A stretch of 21,730 nt of DNA from positions 1 through 21,730 of the forward strand of contig JAZDJN010000116.1 of the NCBI GenBank assembly GCA_043803945.1. Reading direction: 5' to 3'. The notes under the pieces were generated by a model. That model was not told where the DNA came from and did not search any database. It saw only the letters and a list, made by a program, of their open reading frames with translations. Positions 9,001-21,730 of this stretch are shown here, piece after piece; within the stretch, counting starts at the first letter, position 1, and each line of letters opens with the position of its first letter. A program made the translations under genes and the position numbers. This DNA is from a bacterium. Its GTDB lineage: Bacteria; Bacteroidota; Ignavibacteria; UBA10030.

Positions 9001-10284
9001 TGCGAACAAATAACCATTCGACTTTGCTGCAAATGCAAAAACCCAGGGCCATTGCCCCGATGAAAGGTTGAGCGTTGCCTGTGTCCATGTTGCTCCTTCA
9101 TCTGTCGACCGGAATATTCCAGACTGGGAACCGGCAAAAACGTGTCCGTCTGCATTCGTCCCCATTGCTTCGGTGTAGAGTTGGTTCAATCCTGTATTCG
9201 CATGGTACCAACTTCCACCGCCATCCGTCGAACGCGCGACTCCATCCCCATAGACACCGGCAAAGAGATGGCCGTTGGGAGTGGTGACAGTAGCATAGAC
9301 GACGGTAGCCTTCAATGGAACTTCAGTCCAATTATCGGCATTGTCGGTAGAGCGAAAGATGCCACCGCTGGTTCCTGCATAAATAGTCCCGCTCGAATTC
9401 ACGAGGAGGTCAAACGTGAGGGGGCTGGCAAGACCGGTGCTTGTCGTTGTCCAGTGTTCACCGTTATCCGTCGAGCGAAAAATTCCTCCAACAGCACCGG
9501 AGGCAGTACTTGCGAAGAGAACACCAGATGAATTGAAGGCGAGGCTCGTAACATTCGTGAGAGTTAAACCGGTGTTAATTTGAGTCCATGTGTCGCCATT
9601 ATCCGTAGAACGAGAGACGCCATAGTTCCCGCTGCCGATAAAAAGATGTCCGCTTGAGTTGAAAGCTGTCGAATTCACATAATCATACACTGTGCCTGTC
9701 CTTACCTTCACCCAACTATCCCCATCGTCCTGCGATCGGAAGACACGACCACTGTCACTGCCCGCGAAGATAGTTCCACTGGAGTTGACAGCAACCGAGT
9801 AAAAAGTACCGTTCAGCAATCCTGCGCCTACCTGAGTCCAATGTCCACCGTTATCGGTTGATCGAAAAACTCCCTCACGCATTCCAGCGAAGAGATACCC
9901 GTTTGTATGAATTGCTAAAGATTGGATAGACATGTTGCCGGGAAATCCTGTATTCACCTGAGTCCATGTTATACCATTGTCTGTGGATCGCTGCACACCC
10001 CAACTTCCGCAGAAGACGTGGCCGGAAGAGTTAATCGCGATTGCCTCGATCCCTTGCATTGACACGCGTGCCCATGAGGTACCGCCATCTGTCGAACGAA
10101 GCAGTCCGCTGTAGGCACCAGCGGCGAACAAGCGGCCGTCTGCATCAATTGCCAGTGACCTGAACACACCTCCGGAAGGTCCACTTGTCTGCTGCCAGAT
10201 GCTTGACTGAGCGCTAAGCGTGGTGAAAATAGAAAGAAGGGTGACAATACAAAGAGCAATGCGATGAATGGACGAACGTGTCAT
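1..10284 (-). CDS. Giant secreted multidomain surface protein, >=3428 aa, 3'-truncated by the window edge (signal peptide, Asp-box propellers, 2 CBM20-like, FN3, NHL-like propeller, LamG, FN3, Ig-like, FG-GAP propeller + ASPIC/UnbV, beta-helix, LamG, 2 FN3, NHL-like propeller, unknown domain)
   Basis: Manual translation from ATG at 10284 (RBS TAAGGAGG upstream) found no stop down to position 1. N-terminus MTRSSIHRIALCIVTLLSIFTTLSAQ is a Sec-type signal peptide. Recognisable domain motifs occur throughout in the same frame. Absent from the ORF track because there is no stop in the window. Confidence 0.95.
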   Translation of the reverse strand, partial: MTRSSIHRIALCIVTLLSIFTTLSAQSSIWQQTSGPSGGVFRSLAIDADGRLFAAGAYSGLLRSTDGGTSWARVSMQGIEAIAINSSGHVFCGSWGVQRSTDNGITWTQVNTGFPGNMSIQSLAIHTNGYLFAGMREGVFRSTDNGGHWTQVGAGLLNGTFYSVAVNSSGTIFAGSDSGRVFRSQDDGDSWVKVRTGTVYDYVNSTAFNSSGHLFIGSGNYGVSRSTDNGDTWTQINTGLTLTNVTSLAFNSSGVLFASTASGAVGGIFRSTDNGEHWTTTSTGLASPLTFDLLVNSSGTIYAGTSGGIFRSTDNADNWTEVPLKATVVYATVTTPNGHLFAGVYGDGVARSTDGGGSWYHANTGLNQLYTEAMGTNADGHVFAGSQSGIFRSTDEGATWTQATLNLSSGQWPWVFAFAAKSNGYLFAGGQVFLNGNYTSAIFRSTDNGANWTQVGTGLTGEAIRTLAINWNGDLFAGATEGTPSFRGIIFRSTDNGVTWTQLSTFFPAQVRSLVINWPNSIFAGTAGSGVYLSTNSGSSWNQVNTGLLNTDIRALAIDSSWCVYSGSGGGVFRSIDNGATWIQTNNGLTNLNVLSLLIHTSGFVYAGTSCGGVFKATIPPRPVNVTFTANTSTVPDTLKPNSFIQIRGNILYLGPWNETSQGIMTNIGGDYWRKTILLTPGDTLQYKYFTHVANPLPTGQQNNGWETDLQVVNPTTNNRVLIVGAADTTLPLEFVNGRTPQPQYWKPYVDQPDSIDVYFRVNMQVKGFTQAGQLVGVRGGGNTLGYYGKTFILRKESPRPNVSNPYDGSNFWSGSIRFPVSEFVDNISYKFVIVDADDPNANVVATDSWRSIPTKASPKDTTLYWKWWNDTPLNLTIPAIPTLTSPSTGYIDQPVQMSLFWNTVVGAGSYQVQVATDAGFAALMMDMTTTGTSVNTPTLASLTTYYWRVKAINSVGGSNWSEVRNFKTRLIINPSVSLQWNFAKTFYSTPLNTMGVHGIAVDPSGKVWIAPYGATDSIFVGGVYKKIRALYILNPDGSSVGFSPIRTITVSSITDTLYNSGRGLTTDQNGNILYSSGDALYRFNYQTGEGMNKVIPQAGVTLTSVARDAAGNIFIGHVNISNPLRIYDTNFNFAGTVFGASTGFSRTIAVSANGNDVYWPEYSNMKLYQYHSDNGAAGPYTKLDSISGFVTESMAWQKSTGLLWFSTGYDIFPPNLPYPIQTWYGYNVTTKQIIDSIGWDQFAGSSSARPRGIAFSQTGDTAYVACFNVDNGAVQMFVRSTIPQPTLAGEYKPDANTILLMHMNEPGGSFVNDASGHGNYGTANGTTIGDGRFDKARSFNGTSDVIDLGKPLLSASAPTYTFEAWIKADRFTATAGDIFFNGLSLESFVSINPGGKLMMGVRMSNGDLRYDSSQTAISLGVWTHCAGIYDYANGRIIGYINGVQVFNKNVAGLTPSSSSSSNTIIGGGGSNYIYSGLIDEVRLSNRVRSPQEFDLHLPPQNLALEISGTTVNLTWQDGGGLVGLLKYRIYRGRHPGSFALFDSTTSPAYADLNVPVGSVYYYRVSSLDSTGFEAMSSNFVATGNRSLTLTAPNGWDNWKFGTQQNITWSSSAVDNVRLEYSLDNGLTWSEITASTPGGTGSFAWTIPNVLSTRCRIRISEVVDGTLNDVSDNMFRINRSTALFMPSDDNLGITTSFGQFGCAWGDYDNDGDLDLFIPGQAKPNVLYRNDGGSHFTDVAVSMGIAGPYNRAAFGAVWADFDNDGDLDLLITDGGLRLFRNDITSFTDISAQSGVSTIDAGVALWQVTAGDYDKDGDLDVAFAGANALALPVRILRNNGSAVFTEVAGSTIAPSIPNLESWNPAWVDVDNDGDLDLWMPTIRTPNYGCALLLNQGGQLVLSDSNATGLKARSAITSSWGDFDNDGDMDLFLIPWTGDNDGVAKLFRNNGNGTFTDIAGSVGLASAFSSSRGTYWGDYDNDGDLDLVIGAQSNGIQQLYRNDNGTFVEVGSETGAGFIGAYRSAVFVDYDTDGVLDLYFNEGVSYSGSPSKLPLHNSGNSNHWIGIKPKGIFNNTAGIGARITIVTGAMRQVRDIQAGAGGITNGDLWAHFGLGSAATVDTVIIRWPKGNVNIYTNLAIDQYHTLTEPGNVLRLPPYNISAKYLNQQIADDTLASGKLPSRVYELQRGGLYLANAVFINSGNWTLRLRANDSSTTKKPVIMLFPAYAGSTPWNPPGNLFQLNGNLELKNLEITGYYELVDTNRWNMQGALINIPSTMSGLNITIDSCILSNTNGNHIRTDGAASVIKVTNTIFANMGYLGRSNLGAGKAIDLRNSPCDSLILVNNTFTNWQDRIVRHYPASGASSTGVLGYFLFDHNTLVNGMSFHGLLSLGTLGSNAIIINNLFLDAFALGNDTDPTRQAEYIPSGELDQSGNPRMSWIFSYPTSTTLWTIANNYYGISDSGQAFFNQFASAGVTGEGAPLTWHINSKLGADSVNAFKKIPVTLNKVPALMTQEMRWYRDPTGGNKSKNTPGAWVYGSASDPNDYDRKGYTWLRDSLNCSYSTVSTAYAGGTGGFPAGDLNWFPTRKQSWPGLIMPEGPMTLAGEYKPDANTVFLLHMNEASGPTVMDASGYGNNGTFGFGSLVPAKMGNGYLPATSNGIYVQSFIPAGLGEHFTIEAWVKLSAAPAGVWTFLCAAGARLHVNPDLSVMFGLTLSDGSIGGGLSSNAAALSMNKWYHLAGTFGNRVGTLYLNGRQLASQTYSQGVKMISWGVLIGFQNSPYIFPGIIDEIRISNIARTPQQFNLHLAPQNLTASTSGTTVNLSWQDAGGGIGLFKYRIYRGSDSINVSLIDSTTQTTYENTGVTEGTIYVYRVGAVDSTGFENMSYARASGIPAPPALLAPANASTGVLIPFNLTWNASIGAQSYRIQISSTQDFSTILYDQANLTSTSLLITPAGNTAYYWRVSAVNSAGASGWSTIYSFTTQNILPPPVSRTWQFIKTFFNSTTGSLGIQGLAVDPEGKVWVSPYGASDSILVGSVYLKTRVLYVFYPNGTQAPFSPIKMITVGGVTDTLYNSSRGLTTDHQGNILYSSSIVLYRIDYKTGQGLNKVTPQSNVTLTAAAADISGNIFIGKVTPGYSIQVFNSGFTALGNVETATTGYSRSIGVTRDGKDVFWPEYQYTKALIRYHSDNGAVGPYTKMENLFDGLAIESMTRHPITGYLWVSSGSDMNPPVPPYTKQTWYAFDPITKQIVDTLGWNMISGTEQYRPRGIAFSPTGDTCYIGCSSFDGPVVQMFIRSTLPPPASWNFAQSTGKNATIAVPFAINPKIATSPLKTGDAIGVFFQRDNDLVCAGYSIWQEGQNAAIAVWGDNDQTTTLKDGFNEGELIQFKIWDGQAGKEYPATVTYQSGPGVNYQTNGIYALSSLVGITS
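390..1612 (-). repeat. FN3 + NHL-like beta-propeller, copy B
   Basis: AYYWRVSAVNSAGASGWS, QGLAVDPEGKVWVSPYG, DTLYNSSRGLTTDHQGNILY, YHSDNGAVGPYTK, RPRGIAFSPTGDTCY, VQMFIRST. Confidence 0.85.
1625..2490 (-). repeat. LamG + FN3, copy B
   Basis: TLAGEYKPDANTVFLLHMNE, FTIEAWVK, KWYHLAGTF, YLNGRQL, GIIDEIRISNIART, APQNL...VNLSWQD...KYRIYRG...VYRVGAVDSTGFE. Confidence 0.88.
2520..3835 (-). other. Probable right-handed beta-helix (pectin-lyase-like fold) module within the giant CDS
   Basis: Asn-ladder-type strands ITIDSCILSN, VTNTIFAN, LVNNTFTN, FDHNTLVN, IINNLFLD, IANNYY; ends in GFPAGDLNWFP. Fold is inferred. Confidence 0.6.
3845..5200 (-). repeat. Seven FG-GAP/VCBS Ca-binding repeats followed by an ASPIC/UnbV domain (CRTAC1-like unit)
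   Basis: Seven DxDxDGxxD motifs (WGDYDNDGDLDL, WADFDNDGDLDL, GDYDKDGDLDV, WVDVDNDGDLDL, WGDFDNDGDMDL, WGDYDNDGDLDL, FVDYDTDGVLDL), then NHWIGI...GIGARITI...AHFGLG...VDTVIIRWPKG. Confidence 0.92.
5545..6425 (-). repeat. LamG/concanavalin-like + FN3, copy A (paralog of 1625-2490)
   Basis: TLAGEYKPDANTILLMHMNE, YTFEAWIK, VWTHCAGIYD, YINGVQV, GLIDEVRLSNRVRS, then PPQNL...VNLTWQD...KYRIYRG...YYYRVSSLDSTGFE. Confidence 0.88.
6440..7655 (-). repeat. FN3 + NHL/SMP30-like beta-propeller, copy A (paralog of 390-1612)
   Basis: TTYYWRVKAINSVGGSNWS (FN3), then HGIAVDPSGKVWIAPYG, DTLYNSGRGLTTDQNGNILY, YHSDNGAAGPYTK, RPRGIAFSQTGDTAY, VQMFVRST. Confidence 0.85.
7680..8420 (-). other. Two tandem CBM20-like (starch-binding-type) beta-sandwich modules within the giant CDS
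   Basis: VNVTFTAN...IQIRGNILYLGPWN...GDYWRKTILLTPGDTLQYKY...WET and DVYFRVNM...LVGVRGG...FWSGSIRF...YKFVI resemble the CBM20 pattern (V-x-F...G...LG-x-W...W...YKY/F). Family call is by resemblance. Confidence 0.55.
8435..10200 (-). repeat. Asp-box/BNR repeats within the giant CDS (13 S-x-D/N-x-G-x-x-W type motifs, probably two beta-propellers)
   Basis: Repeated units of about 40-48 aa such as GVFRSTDNGGHW, GVSRSTDNGDTW, GIFRSTDEGATW, GVFRSIDNGATW. Boundaries approximate. Confidence 0.9.
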
Positions 10285-11147: not shown

Positions 11148-12335
11148 ATGGAACACCACCACAAAAAAGAATGTCCCGGAAAGGATAAATATTTATCAGG
11201 AAAGCGGGTACTCCCAAAGCCAATTACCAAGAAGAGCACCATCGCCTCCGTCATCGACAACCTGGACGCTTATAATGGCGGAAGATTACGTGCAGCTTGT
11301 CAATTGATGCGTGATCATTATTCGAAAAAGGATGTCACAATCGGCTTGAGCATTGCCGGCGCATTGACCCCTGCCGGACTCGGCCCCTCCACCATTATTC
11401 CGCTGATGAATCATGGATTTGTGGACTGGTTTGTCGCCACAGGTGCGAATATGTACCATGACCTCCACTTTGCCTTCAACATGCCGATGTTCCGCGGCAG
11501 TCACAATGTCGACGATGCCGATTTACGCGACAAGGGTGTTACCAGAATCTATGATATCCTCTTCGACTATGAGGATGTCCTCATGGCAACAGACCGCATC
11601 CTGCGGAAGATCATGCTGCGCCCCGAGTTCCAGAAAGAAATGGGAACGCGGGAATTCTACCACCACCTGGGAAAAGTGGTAAATGATATTGAGCGAAAAA
11701 ACAAATTAGGAGAGGTCAGCGTCCTTGCGGCGGCATACCGAAACGGTATTCCCGTCTTTACTTCATCACCGGGCGATTCGACCATCGGCATGAACGTCGC
11801 CGGCCTTGAACTCCTCGCCGAAGCAAAAGGACTCAAAGACTATTTTAAATTGAAGATCAATCCGAGTATCGATGTCAACGATTCAACCGCAATCATCCTG
11901 AACGCCAAGAAGTATGAAAACAGCAAGACCGGCGTGCTCCTCATCGGCGGCGGCAGCCCGAAGAATTTCCTGCTCCAGACCGAGCCGCAGATTCAGGAAG
12001 TGCTGATGATACCGGAGGCAGGACAGGACTACGACATCAATATCACCGATGCACGCCCTGATACCGGCGGACTTTCCGGCGCCCCGCCAAGTGAAGCAGC
12101 AAGCTGGGGAAAGATCGATCCGACCAAATTGGACGAAACGGTCACTGCGTACATCGATGTGACAGTCGCATTTCCCTTGTTAACGGCCTACGTCATCCAG
12201 ACGACGAAACCAAAGAAACTGAAACGGTTGTATGAACGCGGAGATGAGCTGCGTCAGAAGTTGATCAAATCGTATCTCGAGAATAATCAGGAAGTCGGCG
12301 AGCTCAGCGGTATGATGAAGCAGCTCCCGCGCTAA
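11148..12335 (+). CDS. speY: Deoxyhypusine synthase-like protein (SpeY-type, probable homospermidine synthase)
   Basis: 395 aa. Motifs AGALTPAG, TGANMYHD, DSTIG, GGGSPKNF and DTGGLSGAPPSEAASWGKI with the imine-forming Lys of DHS. AAGGA RBS. Confidence 0.88.
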   Translation: MEHHHKKECPGKDKYLSGKRVLPKPITKKSTIASVIDNLDAYNGGRLRAACQLMRDHYSKKDVTIGLSIAGALTPAGLGPSTIIPLMNHGFVDWFVATGANMYHDLHFAFNMPMFRGSHNVDDADLRDKGVTRIYDILFDYEDVLMATDRILRKIMLRPEFQKEMGTREFYHHLGKVVNDIERKNKLGEVSVLAAAYRNGIPVFTSSPGDSTIGMNVAGLELLAEAKGLKDYFKLKINPSIDVNDSTAIILNAKKYENSKTGVLLIGGGSPKNFLLQTEPQIQEVLMIPEAGQDYDINITDARPDTGGLSGAPPSEAASWGKIDPTKLDETVTAYIDVTVAFPLLTAYVIQTTKPKKLKRLYERGDELRQKLIKSYLENNQEVGELSGMMKQLPR

Positions 12336-12347
12336 AAGATATGCAAG

Positions 12348-12390
12348 CCTTCCGAAGGTCATTCTGGAATCTCATAGAACCTTCGGAAGG
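12348..12390. repeat. REP-like inverted repeat between the DHS-like gene and ODC
   Basis: CCTTCCGAAGGT (12348-12359) and ACCTTCGGAAGG (12379-12390) are perfect 12-bp complements; each arm is itself a small palindrome (CCTT-NNN-AAGG). Confidence 0.7.
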
Positions 12391-12429
12391 TCGCTCATTA
12401 TTTTCACTTGCATGAGGAATAGACCTGCG

Positions 12430-13563
12430 ATGAAAAAAGAACTGCTTACGTCGGTGGAGGAGCATGGCACTCCGTTATTCATCCTCGATCACAACATCCT
12501 CCGGGAAAATTACAGAACATTCAAGACACATCTTCCGCGGGTGCAGTGTTATTATGCAGTCAAGGCAAACTCCACCCAGCAGATCGTCGAGACTCTCTTC
12601 AAGGAGGGATCAAGCTTCGACGTCGCCTCGTATAATGAATTCATGCAGGTATACAAGTATATTAAAAACTTCGATAAAGATGAAAAGAAGCGCTTTGTCT
12701 GGGACAAGATAATCTTTTCGAACACCATAAAAGACCGTGCAACGCTGAGCAAGATCAAACAATACAAACCGCTCGTCACGTACGATAACATCGCCGAGTT
12801 GAAAAAACTGAAGGAGTATTGCGATACCGCAGGGCTTGTGGTTCGCCTGAAGGTTCCCGATACCGGCTCGCAGGTGGAGATGGCGTCAAAATTCGGAGCT
12901 GACCCATCCGATGCACAACAACTGATTCAGCAGGCGTTCGATATGGGATTAAACGTTGAAGGCATCAGCTTCCACGTCGGTAGTCAATGCACTCACTTTG
13001 ACAACTATGTTGCTGCGCTGGCACTCACGTCGGAAATATTTCATGACGCCCGGAAGAAGGGCTTTAACTTAAACCTGATCGACATTGGCGGCGGATTCCC
13101 GGTACCATACGATCCACAGGTCCCTGAGTTCCAGAAGCTGGCTGCTCTCTTGAATGCAGAATTCAAACGCTTGTTCCCCGACGATATCGAAATTCTCGCC
13201 GAACCAGGGCGCTTTATTGTTGCCACAGCGGCAACCCTTGTCTCGGAGATAATCGGCAAGGCACGTCGCGACGGTAAAATATTTTACCACATCAACGACG
13301 GTGTGTACCATACATTTTCGGGCGTCGTCTACGATCATTGGATCCCCAACTTCAGTGCGTTTAAAGAAGGAGAACATGAAATTTGCGCTGTGGTCGGACC
13401 AACATGCGACAGCTTCGATAAGATTACGCTTTCCGCAGAGTTGCCGGCAAATTTGGAAGTCGGCGATTACCTGTACACAGAAAACATCGGCGCATACAGC
13501 ACAGCATCATCAACCAAGTTTAACGGCTTCGACGGCGCGAAGATTATCCATACAAGTTTTTAG
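12430..13563 (+). CDS. Fold-type III PLP decarboxylase, ornithine (or lysine/ornithine) decarboxylase
   Basis: YAVKAN (PLP Lys), FDVAS, SKFGA, FHVGSQ, DIGGGFP, AEPGRF, YDH specificity element, GPTCDSFD, GAYS. Start 12430 is preferred over 12412 because GAGGA at 12414-12418 can serve as RBS. Confidence 0.9.
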   Translation: MKKELLTSVEEHGTPLFILDHNILRENYRTFKTHLPRVQCYYAVKANSTQQIVETLFKEGSSFDVASYNEFMQVYKYIKNFDKDEKKRFVWDKIIFSNTIKDRATLSKIKQYKPLVTYDNIAELKKLKEYCDTAGLVVRLKVPDTGSQVEMASKFGADPSDAQQLIQQAFDMGLNVEGISFHVGSQCTHFDNYVAALALTSEIFHDARKKGFNLNLIDIGGGFPVPYDPQVPEFQKLAALLNAEFKRLFPDDIEILAEPGRFIVATAATLVSEIIGKARRDGKIFYHINDGVYHTFSGVVYDHWIPNFSAFKEGEHEICAVVGPTCDSFDKITLSAELPANLEVGDYLYTENIGAYSTASSTKFNGFDGAKIIHTSF

Positions 13564-13976: not shown

Positions 13977-14711
13977 ATGGCAAAACGCGCACTCTCATTC
14001 AATCCTATTGGTGTGGTGAAAACACCCCACAACTCAAAGTATGATGCACCCCGGCAACCGGCTTCGGCAACAAAGTCATCTGTCGGTGTTATTACATTGA
14101 ACGAAGGATCAAACTTTGAGCAGGCGCTCGAGGATCTCCAGGGATTCGATTATATCTGGGTGCTCTTCTGGTTCCATAAAAACAAGAACTGGAAGCCGAA
14201 GGTGCTTCCACCCCATGGAGTAAGAACGAAGCGCGGTCTCTTTTCCACCCGATCACCTCATCGGCCAAATCCGATAGGATTGTCACTCTGCAAACTGATC
14301 GATGTCAAAGGCCGTACCATCCGCATTGAGAATCCTGATATGCTCGATGGCACTCTCGTACTGGATATCAAACCTTATCTTCCTCATGCAGAAGCATTTC
14401 CGAATGCACGAAGCGGTTGGATTAATGAATCAAACGAACAGAGCTACCCTGCCTATTCAGTACTCTTCGCTCCAGAAGTCACCAGAGTATTGGAGGAATT
14501 GGATGCCGATAAGCGTCAGGAAATCACTACATACCTCTCAAACCTTCTGGCGCACGATCCCTTCCCCCATTCCTATCGGAGGATCAAAGTATTGAAGGAT
14601 GGCACATCGATGATTGCCGTCAAGCGCTGGAGATTTATTTATGGCATAAAAGAATTGAACGTGCACGTCTTCGGAATCGCTCACGACAAAGAGCGGAGAA
14701 GCAGGGCATGA
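13977..14711 (+). CDS. trmO: tRNA (N6-threonylcarbamoyladenosine37-N6)-methyltransferase TrmO with RelE-fold C-terminal domain
   Basis: PIGVV, APRQP, LQGFDYIWVLFWFH, RGLFSTRSPHRPNPIGLS, DMLDGTLVLDIKPY are TrmO/TsaA/YaeB motifs. Confidence 0.93.
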   Translation: MAKRALSFNPIGVVKTPHNSKYDAPRQPASATKSSVGVITLNEGSNFEQALEDLQGFDYIWVLFWFHKNKNWKPKVLPPHGVRTKRGLFSTRSPHRPNPIGLSLCKLIDVKGRTIRIENPDMLDGTLVLDIKPYLPHAEAFPNARSGWINESNEQSYPAYSVLFAPEVTRVLEELDADKRQEITTYLSNLLAHDPFPHSYRRIKVLKDGTSMIAVKRWRFIYGIKELNVHVFGIAHDKERRSRA

Positions 14712-16528
14712 GAAATCGTTCCACTGTTCTGGAGTTGTTATCGCCGGCCCGCGATCTGGAATGCGGCCTTGCGGCGATCAATCATGGCGCTGATGCAGTC
14801 TATATCGGAGCTCCGAAATTTGGCGCCCGTGTTGCCGCTGGGAACTCCTTTTCCGATATCGCAGCGTTGATCACCTATGCCCATAAATACTGGGCACGCG
14901 TCTATATCACGCTGAATACGATACTCTACGATAATGAATTGGAAGAAGTACGCTCTATTATAGAACAGGTGTATGAAGCCGGGGCAGATGCCCTTATCAT
15001 TCAGGATATGGGGCTTCTGGAGCTTGACCTCCCGCCCATTCCCCTGTTTGCCAGCACGCAAACGCACAATTACGAGATTGAAAAGATCCAATTCCTTGAA
15101 CATGTCGGTATTCAGCGGGTCATCCTTGCCCGTGAATTATCATTGAAGCAGGTGCAGGCAATCAGAGCCGCCACGACAATCGACCTGGAGTTTTTTATTC
15201 ATGGAGCACTCTGTGTAAGTTTCAGCGGGCAGTGTTATTTCAGTCAAGTGACAAAAAGCCGAAGTGCCAACAGAGGCGAGTGTGCCCAGCCTTGCCGCCT
15301 CCCCTATACACTCACCGACAGCCGGGGCACAACACTCGCGGACAATCAACATCTGCTCTCACTGAAGGACTTGAACTTATCGGAGTATCTTACCGATCTT
15401 ATCGATACCGGCGTAACATCGTTTAAAATCGAAGGTCGCCTGAAAGAAGCTTCTTACGTAAAAAATATTACTGCATTCTACCGTGCGAAACTCGATGCCA
15501 TCATTGAAGAGCGGGAAGGACTTCAGCGTTCCTCTTCAGGCAACACAACATTTACTTTTACTCCAGATCCCGAAAAGACTTTTCATCGCGGTTCTACTGA
15601 GTATTTCATCCGCGGCCGAAGGAGTGAGCTTGTGTCATTGCGGACTCCAAAGTCGATTGGCAAACATATTGGTACTGTCCAACGCGTCGGGAAAGAGTTC
15701 TTTACGTTGAAGACTGCTGAAGAGCTTCATAACGGGGATGGCATTTGCTTCTTCAATGATCAGGATGACTTAATCGGATCCAACATCAACACGGTGACTG
15801 GAGACAAGGTATTCCCGAATTCAATGGAGGGGATAGAAACTGGTATAGTTCTGTACAGAAACTATGATCATCAATTTATACAGCAGTTGAAATCGGAAAG
15901 CGCAAAGCGTAAGGTAGGGATCACTCTCTTGTTCGATGAGATTGAAGAGGGCTTTCAATTACGGGGTGTCGATGAGGATGGAAACGAAGCGGTTGCTCAC
16001 ATCAACCATGGAAAAGAACAGGCAAGGAAAGCCGGAACAGCGAACACAACCATCTGGACACAATTCTCGAAGCTCGGCGATACGATTTTTGAGATTGAGA
16101 ATATCACGATTGCATTGAATGAGGAGTATTTCCTTCCAGTATCTGTGCTTAACAATCTCAGGAGGGAGTGTCTTGCTGCACTTGAAATGGAACGTTATCG
16201 GAAGTATCAGCGACCGGTCTCGAAGATAATTCCCAACGAGGTACCCTACCCTCAAACTACACTCGACTATTTTGCAAATGTTGTCAATGAACGAGCTGTG
16301 CAGTTCTACAAACGTCATGGCGTGCAGAAGATTGAACAAGGATTGGAACTTCAGGAAGATACTGCGGGAAAAGTACTGATGACCACCCGCCATTGCCTCA
16401 AGTTCCAGCTTGATCTCTGCCGCGGCGATCGAGAACATGCGGAAGTACTCTACCTCTCGGATGGAAAAGCAACATACAAGGTGGTGTTCAATTGCGATGA
16501 ATGTGTGATGAAGATTGTATCGATGTGA
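14708..16528 (+). CDS. rlhA: U32-family Fe-S RNA hydroxylase, long form (23S rRNA ho5C2501 synthase RlhA-like)
   Basis: 606 aa. ELLSPA, GADAVYIG, EFFIHGALCVSFSGQC, SANRGECAQPCRLPY, SFKIEGR, and a C-terminal DUF3656-like region with LMTTRHCLK. ATGA overlap with trmO. Confidence 0.85.
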   Translation: MRNRSTVLELLSPARDLECGLAAINHGADAVYIGAPKFGARVAAGNSFSDIAALITYAHKYWARVYITLNTILYDNELEEVRSIIEQVYEAGADALIIQDMGLLELDLPPIPLFASTQTHNYEIEKIQFLEHVGIQRVILARELSLKQVQAIRAATTIDLEFFIHGALCVSFSGQCYFSQVTKSRSANRGECAQPCRLPYTLTDSRGTTLADNQHLLSLKDLNLSEYLTDLIDTGVTSFKIEGRLKEASYVKNITAFYRAKLDAIIEEREGLQRSSSGNTTFTFTPDPEKTFHRGSTEYFIRGRRSELVSLRTPKSIGKHIGTVQRVGKEFFTLKTAEELHNGDGICFFNDQDDLIGSNINTVTGDKVFPNSMEGIETGIVLYRNYDHQFIQQLKSESAKRKVGITLLFDEIEEGFQLRGVDEDGNEAVAHINHGKEQARKAGTANTTIWTQFSKLGDTIFEIENITIALNEEYFLPVSVLNNLRRECLAALEMERYRKYQRPVSKIIPNEVPYPQTTLDYFANVVNERAVQFYKRHGVQKIEQGLELQEDTAGKVLMTTRHCLKFQLDLCRGDREHAEVLYLSDGKATYKVVFNCDECVMKIVSM

Positions 16529-16587
16529 AATGAACTTCCACTCTCCCTGTCCGATCCACACTAAGAAATTCCGTGATTCACAGGCAC

Positions 16588-16621
16588 AAAAAAAGGCCCG
16601 GTATGTTACCGAGCCTTTTTT
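16588..16621. terminator. Bidirectional intrinsic terminator between the convergent rlhA and lamin-tail genes
   Basis: A7-GGCCCGGTA-TGT-TACCGAGCC-T6. The stem is fully paired (one G-U) on the minus strand and has one mismatch on the plus strand. Confidence 0.85.
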
Positions 16622-16648: not shown

Positions 16649-17821
16649 TTATCGGAGCAGAAGCATCTTTGCTGATTTGGCGTATGTTCCGGTCACCAAT
16701 TCATAGAAATAAGTACCACTCGATACATCTCGCCCTGAGTTATCCTTGCCGTCCCACACGAGTACATGTGATCCTGCCTGTTGCTCGCTATTCACCAGAG
16801 TCCTGACCCGCTGTCCAATTGAATTATAAACCTGCAATTGGACAAATTCCTGGTGTGGAATGAGAAATGAGATCGTGGTTGATGGATTAAAAGGATTGGG
16901 ATAGTTTTGATGGAGATCATATTCTATAGCAATGGAGGAATAATCTTGCACCGCCGTCGCACTGCCATTCGATGTGCCACGGGTTATCGTATTCAGAAGC
17001 TTCCACGCACCTCCGTCCGGAGATCTGCCAAACGTCTGTGAGACATCCATCGCTGCAAAGGTAACTGTATCGATGATCGTTCCACTCGAATCTTCCAACC
17101 ACACCATTTCACCAGAGCTCGACAGCCCAAAATCTGAAGTCGCTGAGCCATCTGTAACAATAACGAAAAAACCCTTTGCAGGAATCATCGTGCCTGCAGG
17201 GATGTCCTTCTTGGGTTTTGTACCACTCTGTCCGCCGACATTGTAAATTTTGTATCCTGTAAGATTGATCGCTATCGACGATGCATTGTAGAGCTCGATC
17301 CAATCAGGGTCCGTGGTTGTGCCTCTCGAATAGATCTCGTTCATCATAATCGGTGCATTCGCGGTTCCTCTCGTTATCTTGTTCAGCAACTTCCATGATG
17401 CTCCATCAGGATACCTTCCATAGGTCTGCGAAACATCCATCGCTGTAAATGTGATCGAATCGATAATCGCTCCGGAGGCATTTCCCAGCCACACAGTTTC
17501 ACCAGAGCTCGACAGCCCAAAATCTGAAGTCGCTGAGCCATCTGTAACAATAACGAAAAAACCCTTTGCAGGAATCACCGTGCCTGCAGGGATGTCCTTC
17601 TTGGGTTTTGTACCACTCTGTCCGCCGACATCGTAGATCTTGTATCCGCTGATGTCGATTTGTGTTGCAGATCCATTATAAATTTCGATCCAGTCTGGAT
17701 CGGCAGTGACTCCCCTCGAATAGATCTCATTCATCTTAACGGCAGATGATTGAGCAAAGCTCTGGTTATTAACCAGAGAAAGAGCGAGGAGAGCTAGAAC
17801 GAGTAGGCTCAATTGTTTCAT
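16649..17821 (-). CDS. Secreted protein with two lamin-tail domains and a FlgD-Ig/T9SS type A sorting domain
   Basis: Signal peptide; two copies of MNEIYSRG...DWIE(I/L)YN...L/I-(S/T)GYKI...FGLSSSGE-x-VWL...GR-x-PDG...W; C-terminal LHQNYPNPFNPSTTISF...VRTLV...WDGKD...SSGTYFYEL...KMLLLR. AAGGAG RBS. Confidence 0.92.
   Translation of the reverse strand: MKQLSLLVLALLALSLVNNQSFAQSSAVKMNEIYSRGVTADPDWIEIYNGSATQIDISGYKIYDVGGQSGTKPKKDIPAGTVIPAKGFFVIVTDGSATSDFGLSSSGETVWLGNASGAIIDSITFTAMDVSQTYGRYPDGASWKLLNKITRGTANAPIMMNEIYSRGTTTDPDWIELYNASSIAINLTGYKIYNVGGQSGTKPKKDIPAGTMIPAKGFFVIVTDGSATSDFGLSSSGEMVWLEDSSGTIIDTVTFAAMDVSQTFGRSPDGGAWKLLNTITRGTSNGSATAVQDYSSIAIEYDLHQNYPNPFNPSTTISFLIPHQEFVQLQVYNSIGQRVRTLVNSEQQAGSHVLVWDGKDNSGRDVSSGTYFYELVTGTYAKSAKMLLLR
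17107..17631. repeat. 135-bp near-identical direct repeat (17107-17241 vs 17497-17631), period 390 nt
   Basis: Only one mismatch (17188 T vs 17578 C) by manual alignment, while flanking parts of the two lamin-tail domains are clearly diverged. Confidence 0.9.
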
Positions 17822-17884
17822 CGTAGCTCCTTAGTATTGATTAGTAAAAATATCATGCAATAATTTGTTCCACATGGATTCTTA

Positions 17885-18302
17885 TCACTGCGGCTTTTGA
17901 AAAACATATAGCTTACCATCCGCATCCGAAATAATATATAGTTTATTCTGGACGATTGTAATTCCTTCTCCCTTGGAAAATGGAATGGAGTATTCGGAAA
18001 GCACCGTGCCGTTCATATCGAGCTTCAAGACCTTCTGCGATTCATCGCTGACAATCCATAAACAATTTGCCTGTTCCTTATAAAATATATCCGAGAGGTC
18101 AAGAGCTGCAGTAATTTCTTTCCGCGCGAGCTCCTGTCCTCGATAGTACTCCAGCATCAACCGGGGTGCCTTTTCATTGAGAATAAAAAGATGGTTCCTC
18201 TTATCGATCGTGACACCCTCAAGCGCATTGTTCGGAACGGTGGCAACCTTGACCATGAAGGAAGAAATCTTTGTTCCATTTGTCAGATAGGCTGTAACCA
18301 TT
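17885..18302 (-). pseudogene. C-terminal fragment of an SdiA-regulated/YjiK-like beta-propeller protein (5' part missing)
   Basis: NNALEGVT, LFILNEKAP, DLSDIFY, LWIVSDES, KGEGIT, LYIISD motifs. No signal peptide or convincing RBS; abuts the porin fragment directly. Confidence 0.7.
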
Positions 18303-18408
18303 GGATCCACATGTCTCGAAGATCAAGAACCGCTTCGGCAAAATCAATATCCATCTCGGCTTGCCAATCCTTCCAGAGGACAGACTTGAAGGCGAAGGTC
18401 AGTCTTCT
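18303..18408 (-). pseudogene. Internal ~35-codon fragment of an OprO/OprP-like phosphate-selective porin
   Basis: (F)RRLTFAFKSVLWKDWQAEMDIDFAEAVLDLRDMWI matches the N-terminal RR-x-R...W...(E/D)-x-DFA...(K/R)D-x-(W/Y)I strands of Porin_O_P and is unlike a helical DUF47 C-terminus. Confidence 0.6.
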
Positions 18409-18922
18409 AAAAATCGTGCGTTTGATGCGTTCGGCAATCTTGTTCGTTTCCTTCTTGTAAAACTGTACCTTCGTTACATAATCCCTCACAGCATCGATAT
18501 TCTTGAAGTAGGATCGGATGCCGCTCACTGTGTTCTCCAGGCATGAGACTGAACTATCGGCGAGTTCCATAAAATCCTGTTTGAGCATTGCGGTGATATC
18601 TGGTATCTCCACAGAAAACTCGAGCAAGGTTTCTGTCGTTATGTTCAGCACCTTGTCACAGCTTTCCAGCAATCCGAGCACATCACCCCGCGCCTCAGGG
18701 ATTAGTGTCCTCGTATATAGCTTGATCTCGATATTCCTTCGCAAATCATCCGCCCGGTCTTCGATCTTCCGGAGGTCGCTGAGATAACTTTCAAATTCTT
18801 CAGACTGATTCTCGAGATAACACCTGATCCCATTTTTAAAGATCACCCCCCTTGATCACCAGATCAAGATATTCATCGATTTGGGATTCTAACTCTCTTG
18901 TGCGCTTGAAATACAGTGACAT
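18409..18922 (-). pseudogene. DUF47/PhoU-like phosphate transport regulator, frameshifted and 3'-truncated
   Basis: ATG 18922 after AGGTGA gives MSLYFKRTRELESQIDEYLDLVIKGG. The frame changes at the G6 run (18846-18851), then IEDRADDLRRNIEIKLYTRTLIPEARGDVLGLLESCDKV. Homology is lost after RIKRTIFR. Confidence 0.8.
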
Positions 18923-18929
18923 TGTTGCA

Positions 18930-19076
18930 TCACCTGATTATCGGTGATTCACCGTTTGGATTATCGACATTATTCCGTACAAGATCCCGGAAGAACACCA
19001 AATACAGAATTCCGACGAGGGAGAGAACAATTGCCAGAACGGGAGATTTTGTACGTGATTTAAACTGCATTTTCAC
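18930..19076 (-). pseudogene. Probable chimeric remnant: signal-peptide-like N-terminus joined to a membrane-protein C-terminus (possibly PiT)
   Basis: MQFKSRTKSPVLAIVLSLVGILY from 19070. Another frame reads SGILYGIMSIIQTVNHR-stop (stop 18940-18938), ending just before the DUF47 RBS where PiT genes often lie. Identity is inference only. Confidence 0.3.
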
Positions 19077-19144
19077 ATAGGCATGTTCACCCAGTTTGAG
19101 CTTGGGCGATTGAAGAATGACGCAATTTCTGGTACTGCGGCTGT

Positions 19145-20448
19145 TCAAAATGGCGCTATCCCCAGGAATCTAAACCAGGTGAGTCCTGCCAGAACGAATA
19201 AGAATACTCCTATTGTAGCGATGATAATGCCATACTTCAGGTTGTCAAGGACAGAATACTGGCCTGTCGTGAAGAGGATGACATTCGGTTTGGCACTGAT
19301 CGACAGTCCAACCACCCAATCGATAGTAAAAGCGGCGGGCAACGCCAGCGCCAATGGATTGATCCCCAATTCCTGGGCGAGGGCAATAGTAAAGGGAATC
19401 AAAATTATCGTTCGCATAGTCTTGGAGGTAAAAACGAGATGCGAATACATCATCACGGCGATAACGATAGTATACAGTACCCAGAAGTTGATGTCTTTTC
19501 CAATATTCAGCAGCACAAATAAATTCTGGATGACCCACTTTGCGGCACCGGTATCATTGAGTGCTAACCCGCCGGCATAGGCGCCCGCACTGAACAACAT
19601 CAAATGCCATGGAATATCGCATTCATTCCATTTGAGCAGGCCAACTTTGGGAAGCAGCGTGATGATGCCGCCAATCATAGCAGCCATCACCGGATCAATC
19701 TGAAAACCAAAGAGTTCAACATGAAATCGATCCGTCACCCATAAGATAACCACAATTCCAAAAATGACGGTACCTTTTTTTTCCAGGGAGCTCATCTTGC
19801 CCATGGCATCGAGCTGCTTTTTTAACGCTTCGATGCCGCCCTTTACTGCAGGCAGCTTTTCCTTCGTGCGGAGTTTGAACAAGAGCTTTGGACCAATAAT
19901 CCACGCAATCGCCATCGTAACAAGTACGACCGGTAAATTGGCAATCATCCAATCGGTATAATAGACTTTTGTTCCGGCCATGCTAAAGATGAAAGAGATC
20001 GCTATCAGATTAGCAGTGCTGCCTGTCATGAAACCGGATGAGAAGATATTAATGCCCAGAAGATTCTGGAGAAAGAGATTCTTGCCAAATCTGTTCGGAT
20101 TATCATTGGTCGATCCATAAATCGATGCCACGATAAGCATAATGGGAAGTGTAATCACTGTGCGTGCGGCGGTTGCCGGTATCATCGGAGCAAGCACTAA
20201 TTGCAAAATACGAAATGCCGCCATCATCAGCATGGCGCTGTGTCCAAATTTGACTATCAGGGTGAGTGCAATTCGCTTCGCTATCTTTGTCTTGACAAGC
20301 AGAGAACTCAGAATAAAAGCGAGCACATTCAACCAGATAACATCAAATTGTGCTTATCGAGATCTAACAAGTCATCCAGATTTTGGCCATTCACTTTACC
20401 CACCATGCCGTTTGCCGCAGCCGATCTGGCGTCTCTCGAGGCAGTCAT
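19145..20448 (-). pseudogene. DASS/SLC13 sodium:anion symporter, disrupted near the 5' end
   Basis: IPATAART, FMTGSTANLIA, IPWHLMLFSAG, ISAKPNVILF motifs over about 400 aa. The frame extends to FDVIWLNV near 20347 without a proper start or RBS. A short N-terminus from ATG 20448 (MTASRD...LDDLLDLDKH) is out of frame, and the first TM helices are missing. Confidence 0.75.
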
Positions 20449-20452
20449 GGAA

Positions 20453-20926
20453 TTATGACTTCTCCCACGTGGTGTAAGGATTCTTGATCAGATTGGAATT
20501 GAAATAGCGCGGATCGCCCGAGACTTCCCCGCCAACCCATGCCGGCAGATCGATCTTGACGTTCTCATCGCTCAATTCCACTTCTGCAACGACCAGCCCT
20601 TCGTTCACGCCATGGAATTCATCAATTTCCCATGTGAGGCCGGCGTGCTCGATTTTGGCTCGATACTTTTCGATAATCGGCTTCTCGCATAAATTATCCA
20701 GCATGATGTTGGCATCTTCCGCCGGAATTTCGTACTCGAATTCGCTCCGTGTAACACCAATGGTGATTCCCTTGATTGTCAGGAATCCCTTCTCGCTGAT
20801 CGTTCGTACACGAACCACCCGCTCCTTCACGGTGGAGAGATATCCCTGCCTGTAGTATTTTCCTTTGGCGAGTGATTTCCATTCATCGGACTTGATTAAA
20901 AATTTGCGTTCTATTTCTTTTCCCAT
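20453..20926 (-). CDS. CYTH/triphosphate tunnel metalloenzyme (157 aa, intact)
   Basis: True start ATG 20926 after TAAGGAG: MGKEIERKFL, RQGYL, VRVR, LTIKG, RSEFEYEIP, IEKYR, WEIDEF, GLVVAEVEL, EVSGDPRYFNSNL. Confidence 0.92.
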   Translation of the reverse strand: MGKEIERKFLIKSDEWKSLAKGKYYRQGYLSTVKERVVRVRTISEKGFLTIKGITIGVTRSEFEYEIPAEDANIMLDNLCEKPIIEKYRAKIEHAGLTWEIDEFHGVNEGLVVAEVELSDENVKIDLPAWVGGEVSGDPRYFNSNLIKNPYTTWEKS

Positions 20927-20937
20927 CGCAGCTCTCC

Positions 20938-21155
20938 TTATTTCATACCGACCAGGTTTTTTAATCCACTGCAGTGTTTTGATGTCCATGAGGTTATCGC
21001 GAACTTTGGTATTATCCATACTCACTTCAGAGAGGATATAGACTTCTGAGCTTTCCCCGGGTCTTTCCTTCAGGAAATTTCCTGATGTTTTCTTCAGCTT
21101 TTCCAAGATCATTTGTGAATGTGCGCCATTCCCAGCGTGGGATAATTTCTTGCAT
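20938..21155 (-). pseudogene. Divergent CYTH-like protein remnant (frameshift plus probable internal deletion)
   Basis: AGGAG RBS, then MQEIIPRWEWRTF...GKTR. One extra G in the run at 21055-21058 shifts to ESSEVYILS...NTKVRDNLMDIKTLQ. A short tail GLKNLVGMK-stop overlaps the next RBS. Far too short for a CYTH barrel. Confidence 0.6.
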
Positions 21156-21529
21156 AGGATCTCCTAGCCCAAGTTCGACAGTTGTGAAGAAAAGATGGCG
21201 ATTCTGTTGAGCATAGGGCATAAATGTTAAAAAGTCGGCACTACATTTTTGAGTTTCAATTCGAGCCGTTCAGGTGGTCTCAGGTCGAGTCTCTGAAGCA
21301 AGAGAGCTAAAGGTGGCTCCGGTTTTGAGATGCACCGGAGTCTAATGTCGATCTGTGTGCGCGTTAGAAGAACGACATCGATGAGCGTCAGGCTTTTAAT
21401 GTCTTCAAGAATAGTCCTCGGCTCGTTGCCCAAGCCTGATCGCTTACATATCTGGCCGAGACATTTCCATATCACATACGCAAGGAAGCACACCAGGATG
21501 TGAGCCTGCACACGATCCTCTCGTTGGTG

Positions 21530-21545
21530 TCCCGACAAGTCGGGA
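21530..21545. repeat. 16-nt palindromic micro-insertion TCCCGAC-AA-GTCGGGA in the transposase
   Basis: Perfect 7-bp IR located exactly at the frameshift between LKLR and HQREDR. Confidence 0.8.
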
Positions 21546-21642
21546 GACGAAGCTTCAAGTCCTGTTTGTGAATGCGGAAGGCTGCTTCCGCTTCTGTCAG
21601 TTGGATGTAGGCTTTCCAAAGATCCTCAGGCGTCCAGTCTTT

Positions 21643-21672
21643 TCAGCCAGAGGCTGATAAGCCTTTGGCTTA
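21643..21672. repeat. 30-nt double-hairpin micro-insertion TCAGCC-AGA-GGCTGA / TAAGCC-TTT-GGCTTA in the transposase
   Basis: Two adjacent 15-nt palindromes. Exact removal restores LLRTNIKDWTPE in frame. Confidence 0.88.
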
Positions 21673-21730
21673 GATGTTTGTGCGCAGGAGATAATATCCT
21701 TCAGTGAGACGGGCCCAGTCGCTGTACGTA

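Follow-up and report, generated by a model that had tools for sequence, protein, structure and literature searches.

Results

A truncated operon on the minus strand of the window

We analysed a stretch of 21,730 nucleotides (GenBank contig JAZDJN010000116.1 of assembly GCA_043803945.1; hereafter the window), which is the entire 21.7-kb contig (C116) of a 5.54-Mb Ignavibacteria genome with 118 contigs and a completeness rating of 100%. The best matches of this genome place it among Melioribacteraceae/Ignavibacteria-type bacteria. On the minus strand of the window, at 16649-21155, lies the remnant of an operon for a TTM-like protein, a small CYTH protein, a DASS carrier, a porin of the OprO/OprP type and several accessory proteins. 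The analysis below shows it to be a copy, inactivated not long ago, of an accessory operon that is conserved elsewhere. The remnant was mapped by tblastn with the proteins of an intact locus (L014), by custom hidden Markov models (HMMs) that were built from the orthologues in 76 related loci and run on all 797 stop-to-stop pieces of the window, by three-frame reading, and with Pfam and NCBIfam. It spans 4.5 kb vs 10.3 kb in L014 (6524-16779), a loss of 5.7 kb. Pfam, NCBIfam and the custom HMMs recover the elements named in a first-pass annotation, made from the letters of the window, at the places and on the strand it gave, with a single misreading.

The first gene of the operon, coding for a 194-amino-acid (aa) TTM-like protein with an RWEWR motif, is a pseudogene (20941-21155, minus strand as for all genes of the remnant; tblastn with the L014 protein; custom HMM E 4.7e-14 and 5.6e-11). 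Residues 1-33 lie at 21155-21057. A frameshift follows, with residues 17-64 at 21097-20963; beyond these ~120 codons have been lost, and the final 12 residues (20976-20941) are out of frame. The DNA alignment of this pseudogene with our nearest related locus, L022, contains a 369-bp gap. The small CYTH/TTM gene that follows (20453-20926) is full length, with 157 codons and an ATG start at 20926 preceded by AAGGAG; its product matches PF01928 at 56.5 bits against a cut-off of 23.2 (in the open frame 20453-21112), covers positions 1-156 of 156 of the custom HMM (E 1.8e-81) and retains the ExExK motif (MGKEIERKF from 20926 onward).

The DASS carrier pseudogene (19145-20391) has lost its N-terminal quarter, residues ~39-129 being deleted. 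Residues 130-528 remain open as 399 codons without a stop (20347-19148), followed by a stop codon; this part is 84% identical to the L014 carrier over 399 aa by tblastn and matches PF00939 at positions 90-471 of 472 (19145-20332) and the custom HMM at positions 125-523 of 525 (E 6.6e-222). With TIGR00785 it scores 174.8 bits, below the cut-off of 198.6, which the L014 carrier exceeds with 216.3. A scrap of the N-terminus (residues 23-38) lies out of frame at 20391-20344, with 12 of its 16 residues identical, a match that alone is not significant. Next come the C-terminal 51 residues of a 262-aa protein, a membrane anchor with the motif YLxFFRD (18975-19127; residues 205-255, 55% identity by tblastn; custom HMM E 4.6e-22, positions 175-237 of 240), which has no Pfam match and whose first ~204 residues are deleted. 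Here the first-pass annotation had read a signal peptide or possible PiT remnant (18930-19148); the piece is instead the anchor of the 262-aa protein, and the PiT gene is wholly deleted, with no custom HMM or tblastn match in the window.

The DUF47/PhoU_div pseudogene (18406-18916; PF01865 50.9 bits; custom HMM E 1.4e-76 and, in the second frame, 6e-8) consists of residues 1-24 at 18916-18845 and, after a frameshift, residues 24-171 at 18849-18406, the C-terminal 41 residues (172-212) being deleted; the Pfam match covers profile positions 34-177 of 214 in one frame (18283-18846). Fused in frame to it, at a junction near 18403-18462, is a fragment of the OprO/OprP-type porin, residues ~72-130 of 426 (18289-18459; tblastn 48% identity over 62 aa, E 6e-13), both ends of which are gone. 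The first-pass annotation had named this porin call in advance as one on which its reading could fail; the family HMM recognises the fragment (positions 74-125 of 421, E 1.5e-17), although it is missed by Pfam's Porin_O_P (PF07396), which has no match on the window at E <= 0.1. The SdiA-regulated/phytase-like beta-propeller is reduced to its C-terminal 143 residues (17885-18316; PF06977 positions 104-242 of 249, 51.8 bits), which correspond to L014 residues 109-251 by tblastn and to custom HMM positions 113-249 of 250 (E 2.2e-62); its signal peptide and residues 1-108 have been deleted together with the lipoprotein gene upstream, which belongs to the lamin-tail domain (LTD) type. The last gene, for a 390-aa LTD protein with a sorting domain of the type IX secretion system (T9SS), is intact (16649-17821): it encodes a signal peptide, two lamin-tail domains (PF00932 115 bits vs 34.3, in two stretches) and the sorting domain (TIGR04183 37 bits vs a cut-off of 23), and matches the custom HMM at positions 1-395 of 395 (E 4.3e-151). 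Beyond it, two hairpins at 16571-16611 (2 found by a consensus scan vs 0.1 expected in shuffles) separate this gene from a convergent U32 peptidase gene; a terminator had been proposed here, and hairpins are indeed present, although they are weak, with stems of only 5 bp.

Recent and local decay

In total, the remnant has at least five deletions and two frameshifts, and only the CYTH gene and the LTD T9SS gene are whole. Its five gaps, of several hundred base pairs to 2 kb, each lie within or between genes of the operon, and the deletions take out transmembrane segments, signal peptides, the entire PiT gene and most of the porin. The decay is recent, that is, young on the substitution clock, because the surviving pieces keep nearly all residues that are invariant among the orthologues: such columns are violated in 0/44 cases in the DASS remnant, 0/27 in DUF47, 0/33 in CYTH, 0/8 in the propeller and 1/18 in the LTD protein. 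The breaks are not a matter of general sequence error, because the same contig holds a giant unbroken open reading frame (ORF) of 3428 codons and intact deoxyhypusine-synthase-like, decarboxylase, TrmO and U32 genes. A reconstruction of the deletion junctions from microhomology was dropped, L022 being too distant (71-80% DNA identity to the window in the enzyme and carrier genes of the operon, lower in the LTD gene).

The place where the promoter and regulators are expected is occupied by an insertion sequence (IS) of the IS1634 family. The C-terminal part of its transposase gene (21227-21730, minus strand; NF033559 E 7.4e-8, 31.8 bits, below the cut-off of 100; NCBIfam match 21227-21619) is broken by frameshifts and one stop in the three-frame reading and continues past the contig end; between its stop codon and the first operon gene 71 bp are left, in which no -24/-12 box was seen by eye. 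IS1634-type copies with 89-100% identity occur at many contig ends (C85, C14, C79, C58, C98, C64, C46 and C72), and these repeats are probably the cause of the fragmentation of the assembly. It would seem that insertion of the element, or a deletion mediated by it, removed the promoter and the regulators, and that the further deletions came after.

No second copy of the cluster came to light when the genome was searched with the profiles of the TTM-like family and Porin_O_P and with two L014 proteins, the PhnD-like one and PiT. The histidine kinase and response regulator of L014 retrieved only paralogues with 32-43% identity, and its PhnD-like protein nothing; in the window, the custom HMM of this binding protein has no match either. 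The genome retains Pst and a different PiT (contig C87).

The intact cluster and its distribution

Using the DASS remnant as bait we recovered the 76 related loci, whose carriers are 53-86% identical to it, except in three loci labelled Bacteroidales (L076, L077 and L079; 41-42%). The lineage labels include Ignavibacteriota, Acidobacteriota, Gemmatimonadota, Krumholzibacteria, Fibrobacterota and others. In L014, ten genes follow one another on one strand: TTM-like protein (194 aa), CYTH (157), DASS (528), the 262-aa protein, DUF47 (212), PiT (498), Porin_O_P (426), an LTD protein (309), the SdiA-regulated propeller (251) and a T9SS protein with three LTD domains (520). Divergently upstream are genes for the PhnD-like binding protein, a histidine kinase and a sigma-54 response regulator.

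Comparison of the loci defines a core of TTM-like protein, CYTH, DASS and porin, to which a DUF47 and PiT pair, the LTD and propeller proteins and an ArrX-like sensor module are optional additions. The co-occurrence whose absence would have refuted the first-pass annotation is strongly conserved: where a locus offers 3 kb or more on each side, CYTH lies on the same strand within 5 kb of DASS in 40/44 cases and the TTM-like gene in 41/44, two of the three misses (L059 and L088) carrying the latter slightly farther off, and the porin is present in 34 of the 39 loci that extend 5 kb or more in both directions. CYTH is directly upstream of DASS in 52/66 loci (at least 700 bp available upstream), and the 262-aa gene just downstream in 42/67. 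The adjacent DUF47-PiT pair is found in 19/39 loci, always with both members; the propeller and the LTD protein each in 24/50 (at least 7 kb downstream); the binding protein, upstream on the opposite strand, in 20/47; and the regulator in 19/40. Three loci with other lineage labels (L059, L077 and L088) also unite porin, LTD, DASS and the TTM-like gene with CYTH or Ppx, and two of them (L059 and L077) additionally carry the propeller; the order in L077 is porin, LTD, TTM-like, CYTH, propeller, DASS.

The cluster is a patchy accessory trait. The TTM-like gene occurs in 7 of the 201 genomes searched of this phylum (as the search tool defines it), the remnant of the window included, and among 40 relatives only one (G003) has an orthologous DASS, 42% identical, together with the whole cluster (L013).

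Several further features of these loci were observed. In L013 (G003:C15:28000-47000), which belongs to a relative from the same family, the TTM-like protein is 88%, the CYTH protein 78% and the DASS carrier 38% identical to those of L014; judging from these identities, a divergent type seems to have replaced the carrier gene, one as far from that of L014 as the Bacteroidales one (39%, L076/L077). An all-against-all clustering of the ORFs of the 76 loci, in which many clusters are antisense ORFs, brought up an unnamed 315-aa protein in six loci. An MgtC/DUF4010 membrane protein follows DASS in seven loci labelled Acidobacteria or Gemmatimonadota (L050, L054, L078, L080, L082, L083 and L085).

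Two TTM-type proteins and their link to condensed phosphate

The nearest solved chain to the window's CYTH protein is NE1496 (2fbl/3typ; E 1.4e-9), or NeuTTM, which we take to be a specific inorganic tripolyphosphatase. Like this enzyme the 157-aa protein is a small CYTH that keeps the EIERKF motif, and triphosphatase activity is predicted for it. Its gene shares an operon with those of a carrier, a porin and a further, divergent TTM, and no such operon context for NeuTTM was found in the literature searched, which covered titles and the beginnings of abstracts.

The 194-aa protein of the first gene has no Pfam or NCBIfam match, CYTH included. An AlphaFold model of the intact L014 protein (pLDDT 96.4, pTM 0.88) finds its best Foldseek matches in ThTPase (3tvl), YgiF (5a60) and AtTTM3 (E 3e-6 to 3e-5, TM ~0.5), in keeping with the original designation of this gene as CYTH-like, and the model identifies the protein as a TTM, with the eight-stranded tunnel fold of the solved enzymes, in which RxExR replaces ExExK. 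Residues R7, E9, R11, Y39, K50, R52, K59 and K129 are invariant in the family, and R131, E142 and E159 nearly so. A search of the PDB sequences with the profile of the family yielded nothing meaningful, the best match being DnaD-like (E 0.041). Among 1.84 billion cluster representatives the family has 2403 members at E <= 0.001 and 1715 at E <= 1e-10. In 17 of 19 longer homologues (fusions among P0121-P0138 and P0139) the TTM-like domain is N-terminal to a Ppx/GppA domain, as in P0121 with the TTM-like domain at residues 6-197 and PF02541 at residues 223-499; one weak match is fused to PPK2. The best 150 representatives include 22 members of at least 275 aa, 12 with PF02541, one with an unrelated domain and nine with none.

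The loci that lack CYTH are equally telling. There are four of these (L026, L038, L088 and L040, the last of which starts inside the DASS gene), and in three of them a Ppx/GppA gene for a protein of 304-334 aa adjoins the TTM-like gene (L026 6732-7646, L038 6734-7648 and L088 3043-4047; PF02541, E 7e-49 to 2e-58), in L026 and L038 in the very slot of CYTH just before DASS. Since Ppx/GppA takes the place of CYTH and the TTM-like domain is fused to Ppx/GppA, the link of the cluster to condensed phosphate is strengthened. These Ppx/GppA exopolyphosphatases are absent from the window and most loci, and the TTM-like domain fused to their N-terminus in many homologues has no Pfam model. In one further locus (L045, 184-5199) genes for PPK1, Ppx/GppA and a ROK-family kinase stand directly beside the DASS, 262-aa, TTM-like and CYTH set; tblastn detected no PPK1 in the other loci, and Ppx as weak matches in L026, L038 and L088 only.

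The DASS carrier and the 262-aa protein

The L014 carrier belongs to PF00939 (222 bits) and aligns over its full length to LaINDY. It shares the fold family of the solved DASS carriers LaINDY, DiT1/DiT2, VcINDY and SLC13, from which it differs as a separate conserved subfamily with about 25% identity to them. This subfamily is tight, with 53-90% identity across phyla vs 23-32% for paralogues and a mean column identity of 72%. In its alignment a conserved cytoplasmic N-terminal motif, LDxLLDLDKHKL, stands ahead of the first membrane helix, and the N-terminal scrap in the window is a remainder of it; the motif may be a docking site. LaINDY and DiT, the nearest relatives, are presumably exchangers, so an exchange mechanism is possible for this carrier too.

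The start of the 262-aa gene overlaps the stop of DASS in L014, and its products have a signal peptide, two beta-sandwiches and a C-terminal helix with YLxFFRD. A Foldseek search gave generic two-beta-sandwich matches (OST1/ribophorin and the M1 aminopeptidase N-domain, TM 0.3-0.48), from which no function follows. Prediction of a complex with DASS scored 0.58, the best control scoring 0.20, with runs agreeing in at least 91% of contacts and a partner pLDDT of at least 78, and lends weak support to an association. The mark for this score was reached by 116 of 157 solved complexes and by 2 of 215 mismatched pairs; 18 of those 157 solved complexes, and both mismatches that passed, reached it with scores of 0.60 or less.

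Porin, phosphate genes, outer proteins and regulation

The porin of L014 (12154-13431) scores 189.6 bits with Porin_O_P and matches both OprP (E 1.1e-20) and OprO (E 1.2e-17), so that a preference for ortho- or pyrophosphate cannot be read from it by assigning it to one or the other. In a low-identity alignment it has 'GNFK' where OprP has 'GRFY' and OprO 'GRFD', and 'ELDV' at 'QINY'/'QINF'. At the two positions that we take to set the preference for phosphate or pyrophosphate (Tyr and Tyr in OprP, Phe and Asp in OprO), the same alignment places Val and Lys. The cluster shares a Porin_O_P channel and a phosphorus-acquisition theme with the OprP/OprO scavenging of the Pho regulon in Pseudomonas aeruginosa. 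It differs from this system in having neither Pst nor PhoBR, in an inner-membrane step assigned to DASS, with or without PiT, and in regulation by a binding protein, a kinase and a sigma-54 regulator. The adjacent PiT and DUF47 genes of the intact loci resemble known PiT pairs with DUF47/PhoU_div, whereas in the window the pair is broken, PiT being deleted and DUF47 frameshifted and truncated. The propeller has weak 'Phytase-like' matches (E 6.4e-7 to 1e-12) and no match among the PDB sequences at E <= 0.01.

The binding protein is nearest to ArrX (E 1.9e-16), presumably an arsenate binder, and then to PtxB, HtxB and AioX-type proteins. A PhnD-like binding protein with a histidine kinase and a sigma-54 response regulator is the layout of the ArrXSR/AioXSR sensors; unlike in those systems, the genes beside the sensor here are for uptake and hydrolysis and not for arsenic redox enzymes. 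The module is present in intact loci; it is absent from the window, and searches with the L014 proteins did not find it in the genome. A -24/-12 box (a TGGCAC-N5-TTGC-like pattern with at most two mismatches) precedes the TTM-like gene in 18/44 loci, at a distance of 31-167 bp that in 17 of these loci does not exceed 85 bp; of 880 random 300-bp windows, 56 contain this pattern.

Neighbouring genes in the window

The giant ORF of at least 3428 codons (1-10284, minus strand) is uninterrupted and runs off the contig; its Laminin_G_3, FG-GAP/ASPIC, Sortilin/BNR, CBM_20 and fn3 domains suggest a very large protein, either secreted or at the surface. It is followed on the plus strand (11148-13563) by a deoxyhypusine-synthase-like gene and an ornithine/diaminopimelate-type pyridoxal-phosphate-dependent decarboxylase gene, which look like a polyamine gene pair of the homospermidine type, and then (13977-16528, plus strand) by a TrmO-like gene, the stop of which overlaps the start (14708-14711) of the U32 peptidase/DUF3656 gene.

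Discussion

Based on gene order, domain content and structure prediction, we consider, with slightly better than even confidence, that the accessory operon inactivated in the window serves, in its intact form, to take up condensed inorganic phosphate and hydrolyse it in the cytoplasm. Extracellular tri- or short polyphosphate would cross the outer membrane via the porin and would be carried over the inner membrane by DASS, perhaps with the 262-aa protein as a subunit; inside the cell, the CYTH tripolyphosphatase (or Ppx) and the TTM-like protein would split it, and DUF47 and PiT would handle orthophosphate. Capture or trimming of the polymer outside may fall to the LTD and propeller proteins, and activation of the operon through sigma-54 to the binding-protein sensor. 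Which way the flux runs, and what the LTD and propeller proteins do, is conjectural. The first-pass annotation had already proposed scavenging of phosphate or polyphosphate: its connection to condensed phosphate has gained from the displacement of CYTH by Ppx/GppA and from the fusions, whereas its possible PiT remnant has fallen away.

A bolder version of the proposal is that this would be the first bacterial pathway to import tripolyphosphate or short polyphosphate unhydrolysed, the LTD protein binding the polymer, the propeller cutting it, and the pieces passing through the porin and then DASS with its beta-sandwich subunit, possibly in exchange for orthophosphate, to the hydrolases, all under an ArrX-like sensor. 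We put this forward tentatively, giving it appreciably less than an even chance. To our knowledge bacteria use pyro-, tri- and polyphosphate only after hydrolysis outside the inner membrane; we know of no bacterial inner-membrane importer of condensed phosphates, and none turned up in the titles and opening lines of abstracts that made up the literature searched.

Several observations weigh against uptake of condensed phosphate. The nearest solved relatives of the carrier are LaINDY (E 1.4e-24), plant DiT1/2 and SLC13, and no carrier of phosphorus-containing anions is among its solved DASS matches at E <= 0.001. The score for the complex with the 262-aa protein is of a size at which most passing pairs are wrong unless the complex was likely beforehand. 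The TTM-like protein lacks the first Glu of ExExK and, to judge from its residues, may bind rather than cleave. The sole NCBIfam match of PiT is the CysP sulfate permease model, below its cut-off, and the kinship of the binding protein to ArrX makes another oxyanion possible as the ligand of the sensor. A sigma-54 box is found in only the minority of loci counted above, L014 not among them; DUF47/PiT, sensor, LTD and propeller are each missing from roughly half of the loci. All related loci come from metagenome-assembled genomes (MAGs), and the deletion junctions in the window are known from the assembly alone. Finally, cytoplasmic PPX and TTM enzymes fit an internal turnover of polyphosphate with phosphate efflux equally well.

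This last point leads to the main rival, a phosphate and polyphosphate homeostasis module likened to those of polyphosphate-accumulating bacteria, in which DASS and PiT would move orthophosphate (in luxury uptake, or in efflux during polyphosphate breakdown), the porin would pass orthophosphate, and the TTM and PPX enzymes would act on the cell's own polyphosphate. PPX, CYTH and the TTM-like protein have no signal peptide that we could predict by eye, PPK1, PPX and ROK genes adjoin the cluster in L045, fusions join the TTM-like domain to Ppx/GppA and, in a weak case, to PPK2, PiT accompanies DUF47 in nearly half of the loci, and some loci stem from MAGs of a wastewater or sludge type, judged from titles; Pho87/90/91, which we take to be eukaryotic DASS members carrying phosphate, also count in its favour. 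We nevertheless regard homeostasis as rather unlikely. In three lineages the core is accompanied by LTD and propeller proteins that are secreted or lipoproteins; these, like the periplasmic ligand-binding sensor, point to an external substrate, and with PiT present another carrier for orthophosphate would be superfluous. No solved phosphate-carrying DASS was matched at the threshold given above, though it is not established that the PDB copy searched contains one. We prefer import of tri- or short polyphosphate to internal polyphosphate turnover with movement of orthophosphate.

The carrier might instead import another anion, such as a carboxylate, sulfate, arsenate or an organic phosphate (e.g. 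breakdown products of inositol phosphates), the TTM enzymes being neighbours with an unrelated or regulatory role. The dicarboxylate or citrate substrates of the nearest solved DASS relatives, the resemblance of PiT to CysP, the ArrX-like sensor and the 'Phytase-like' propeller matches would all suit such a substrate, yet this seems improbable to us, given that the carrier is so distant from those relatives and forms a tightly conserved group of its own, that its linkage to two TTM genes, or to the TTM-like gene and PPX, is near-universal and reinforced by the fusions, and that the porin is of a phosphate-selective family. Least probable by far is that the remnant is an artefact of assembly or binning, or that the shortened genes still work, and that the organism has a functional operon: the genome is a draft and the surviving frames are clean, as in the long stop-free stretch of DASS, but the giant ORF and intact neighbours on the contig speak against an artefact, the losses are specific to the operon, the genome searches turned up no further copy of a cluster gene, and a DASS carrier without its first ~130 residues or a 59-residue piece of porin would be unable to fold like its family.

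No description of a system of this composition was found in the portions of the literature covered, titles and first parts of abstracts, as the first-pass annotation had also supposed. By gene order, displacement and fusion, this gene set, which recurs in several phyla, connects tri- and polyphosphate hydrolases with a porin of the OprO/P type and a distinct DASS carrier, and it is therefore a concrete candidate for a condensed-phosphate import pathway. Two protein families that have no Pfam model are defined here, the RxExR TTM-like domain and the 262-aa beta-sandwich membrane protein. The window itself provides a clean case of early operon decay, with an IS at the promoter side and with deletions and frameshifts preceding changes at invariant residues. 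If import of unhydrolysed tri- or short polyphosphate should prove true, the trait would be a dispensable one, quickly lost once an IS element cuts off the promoter.

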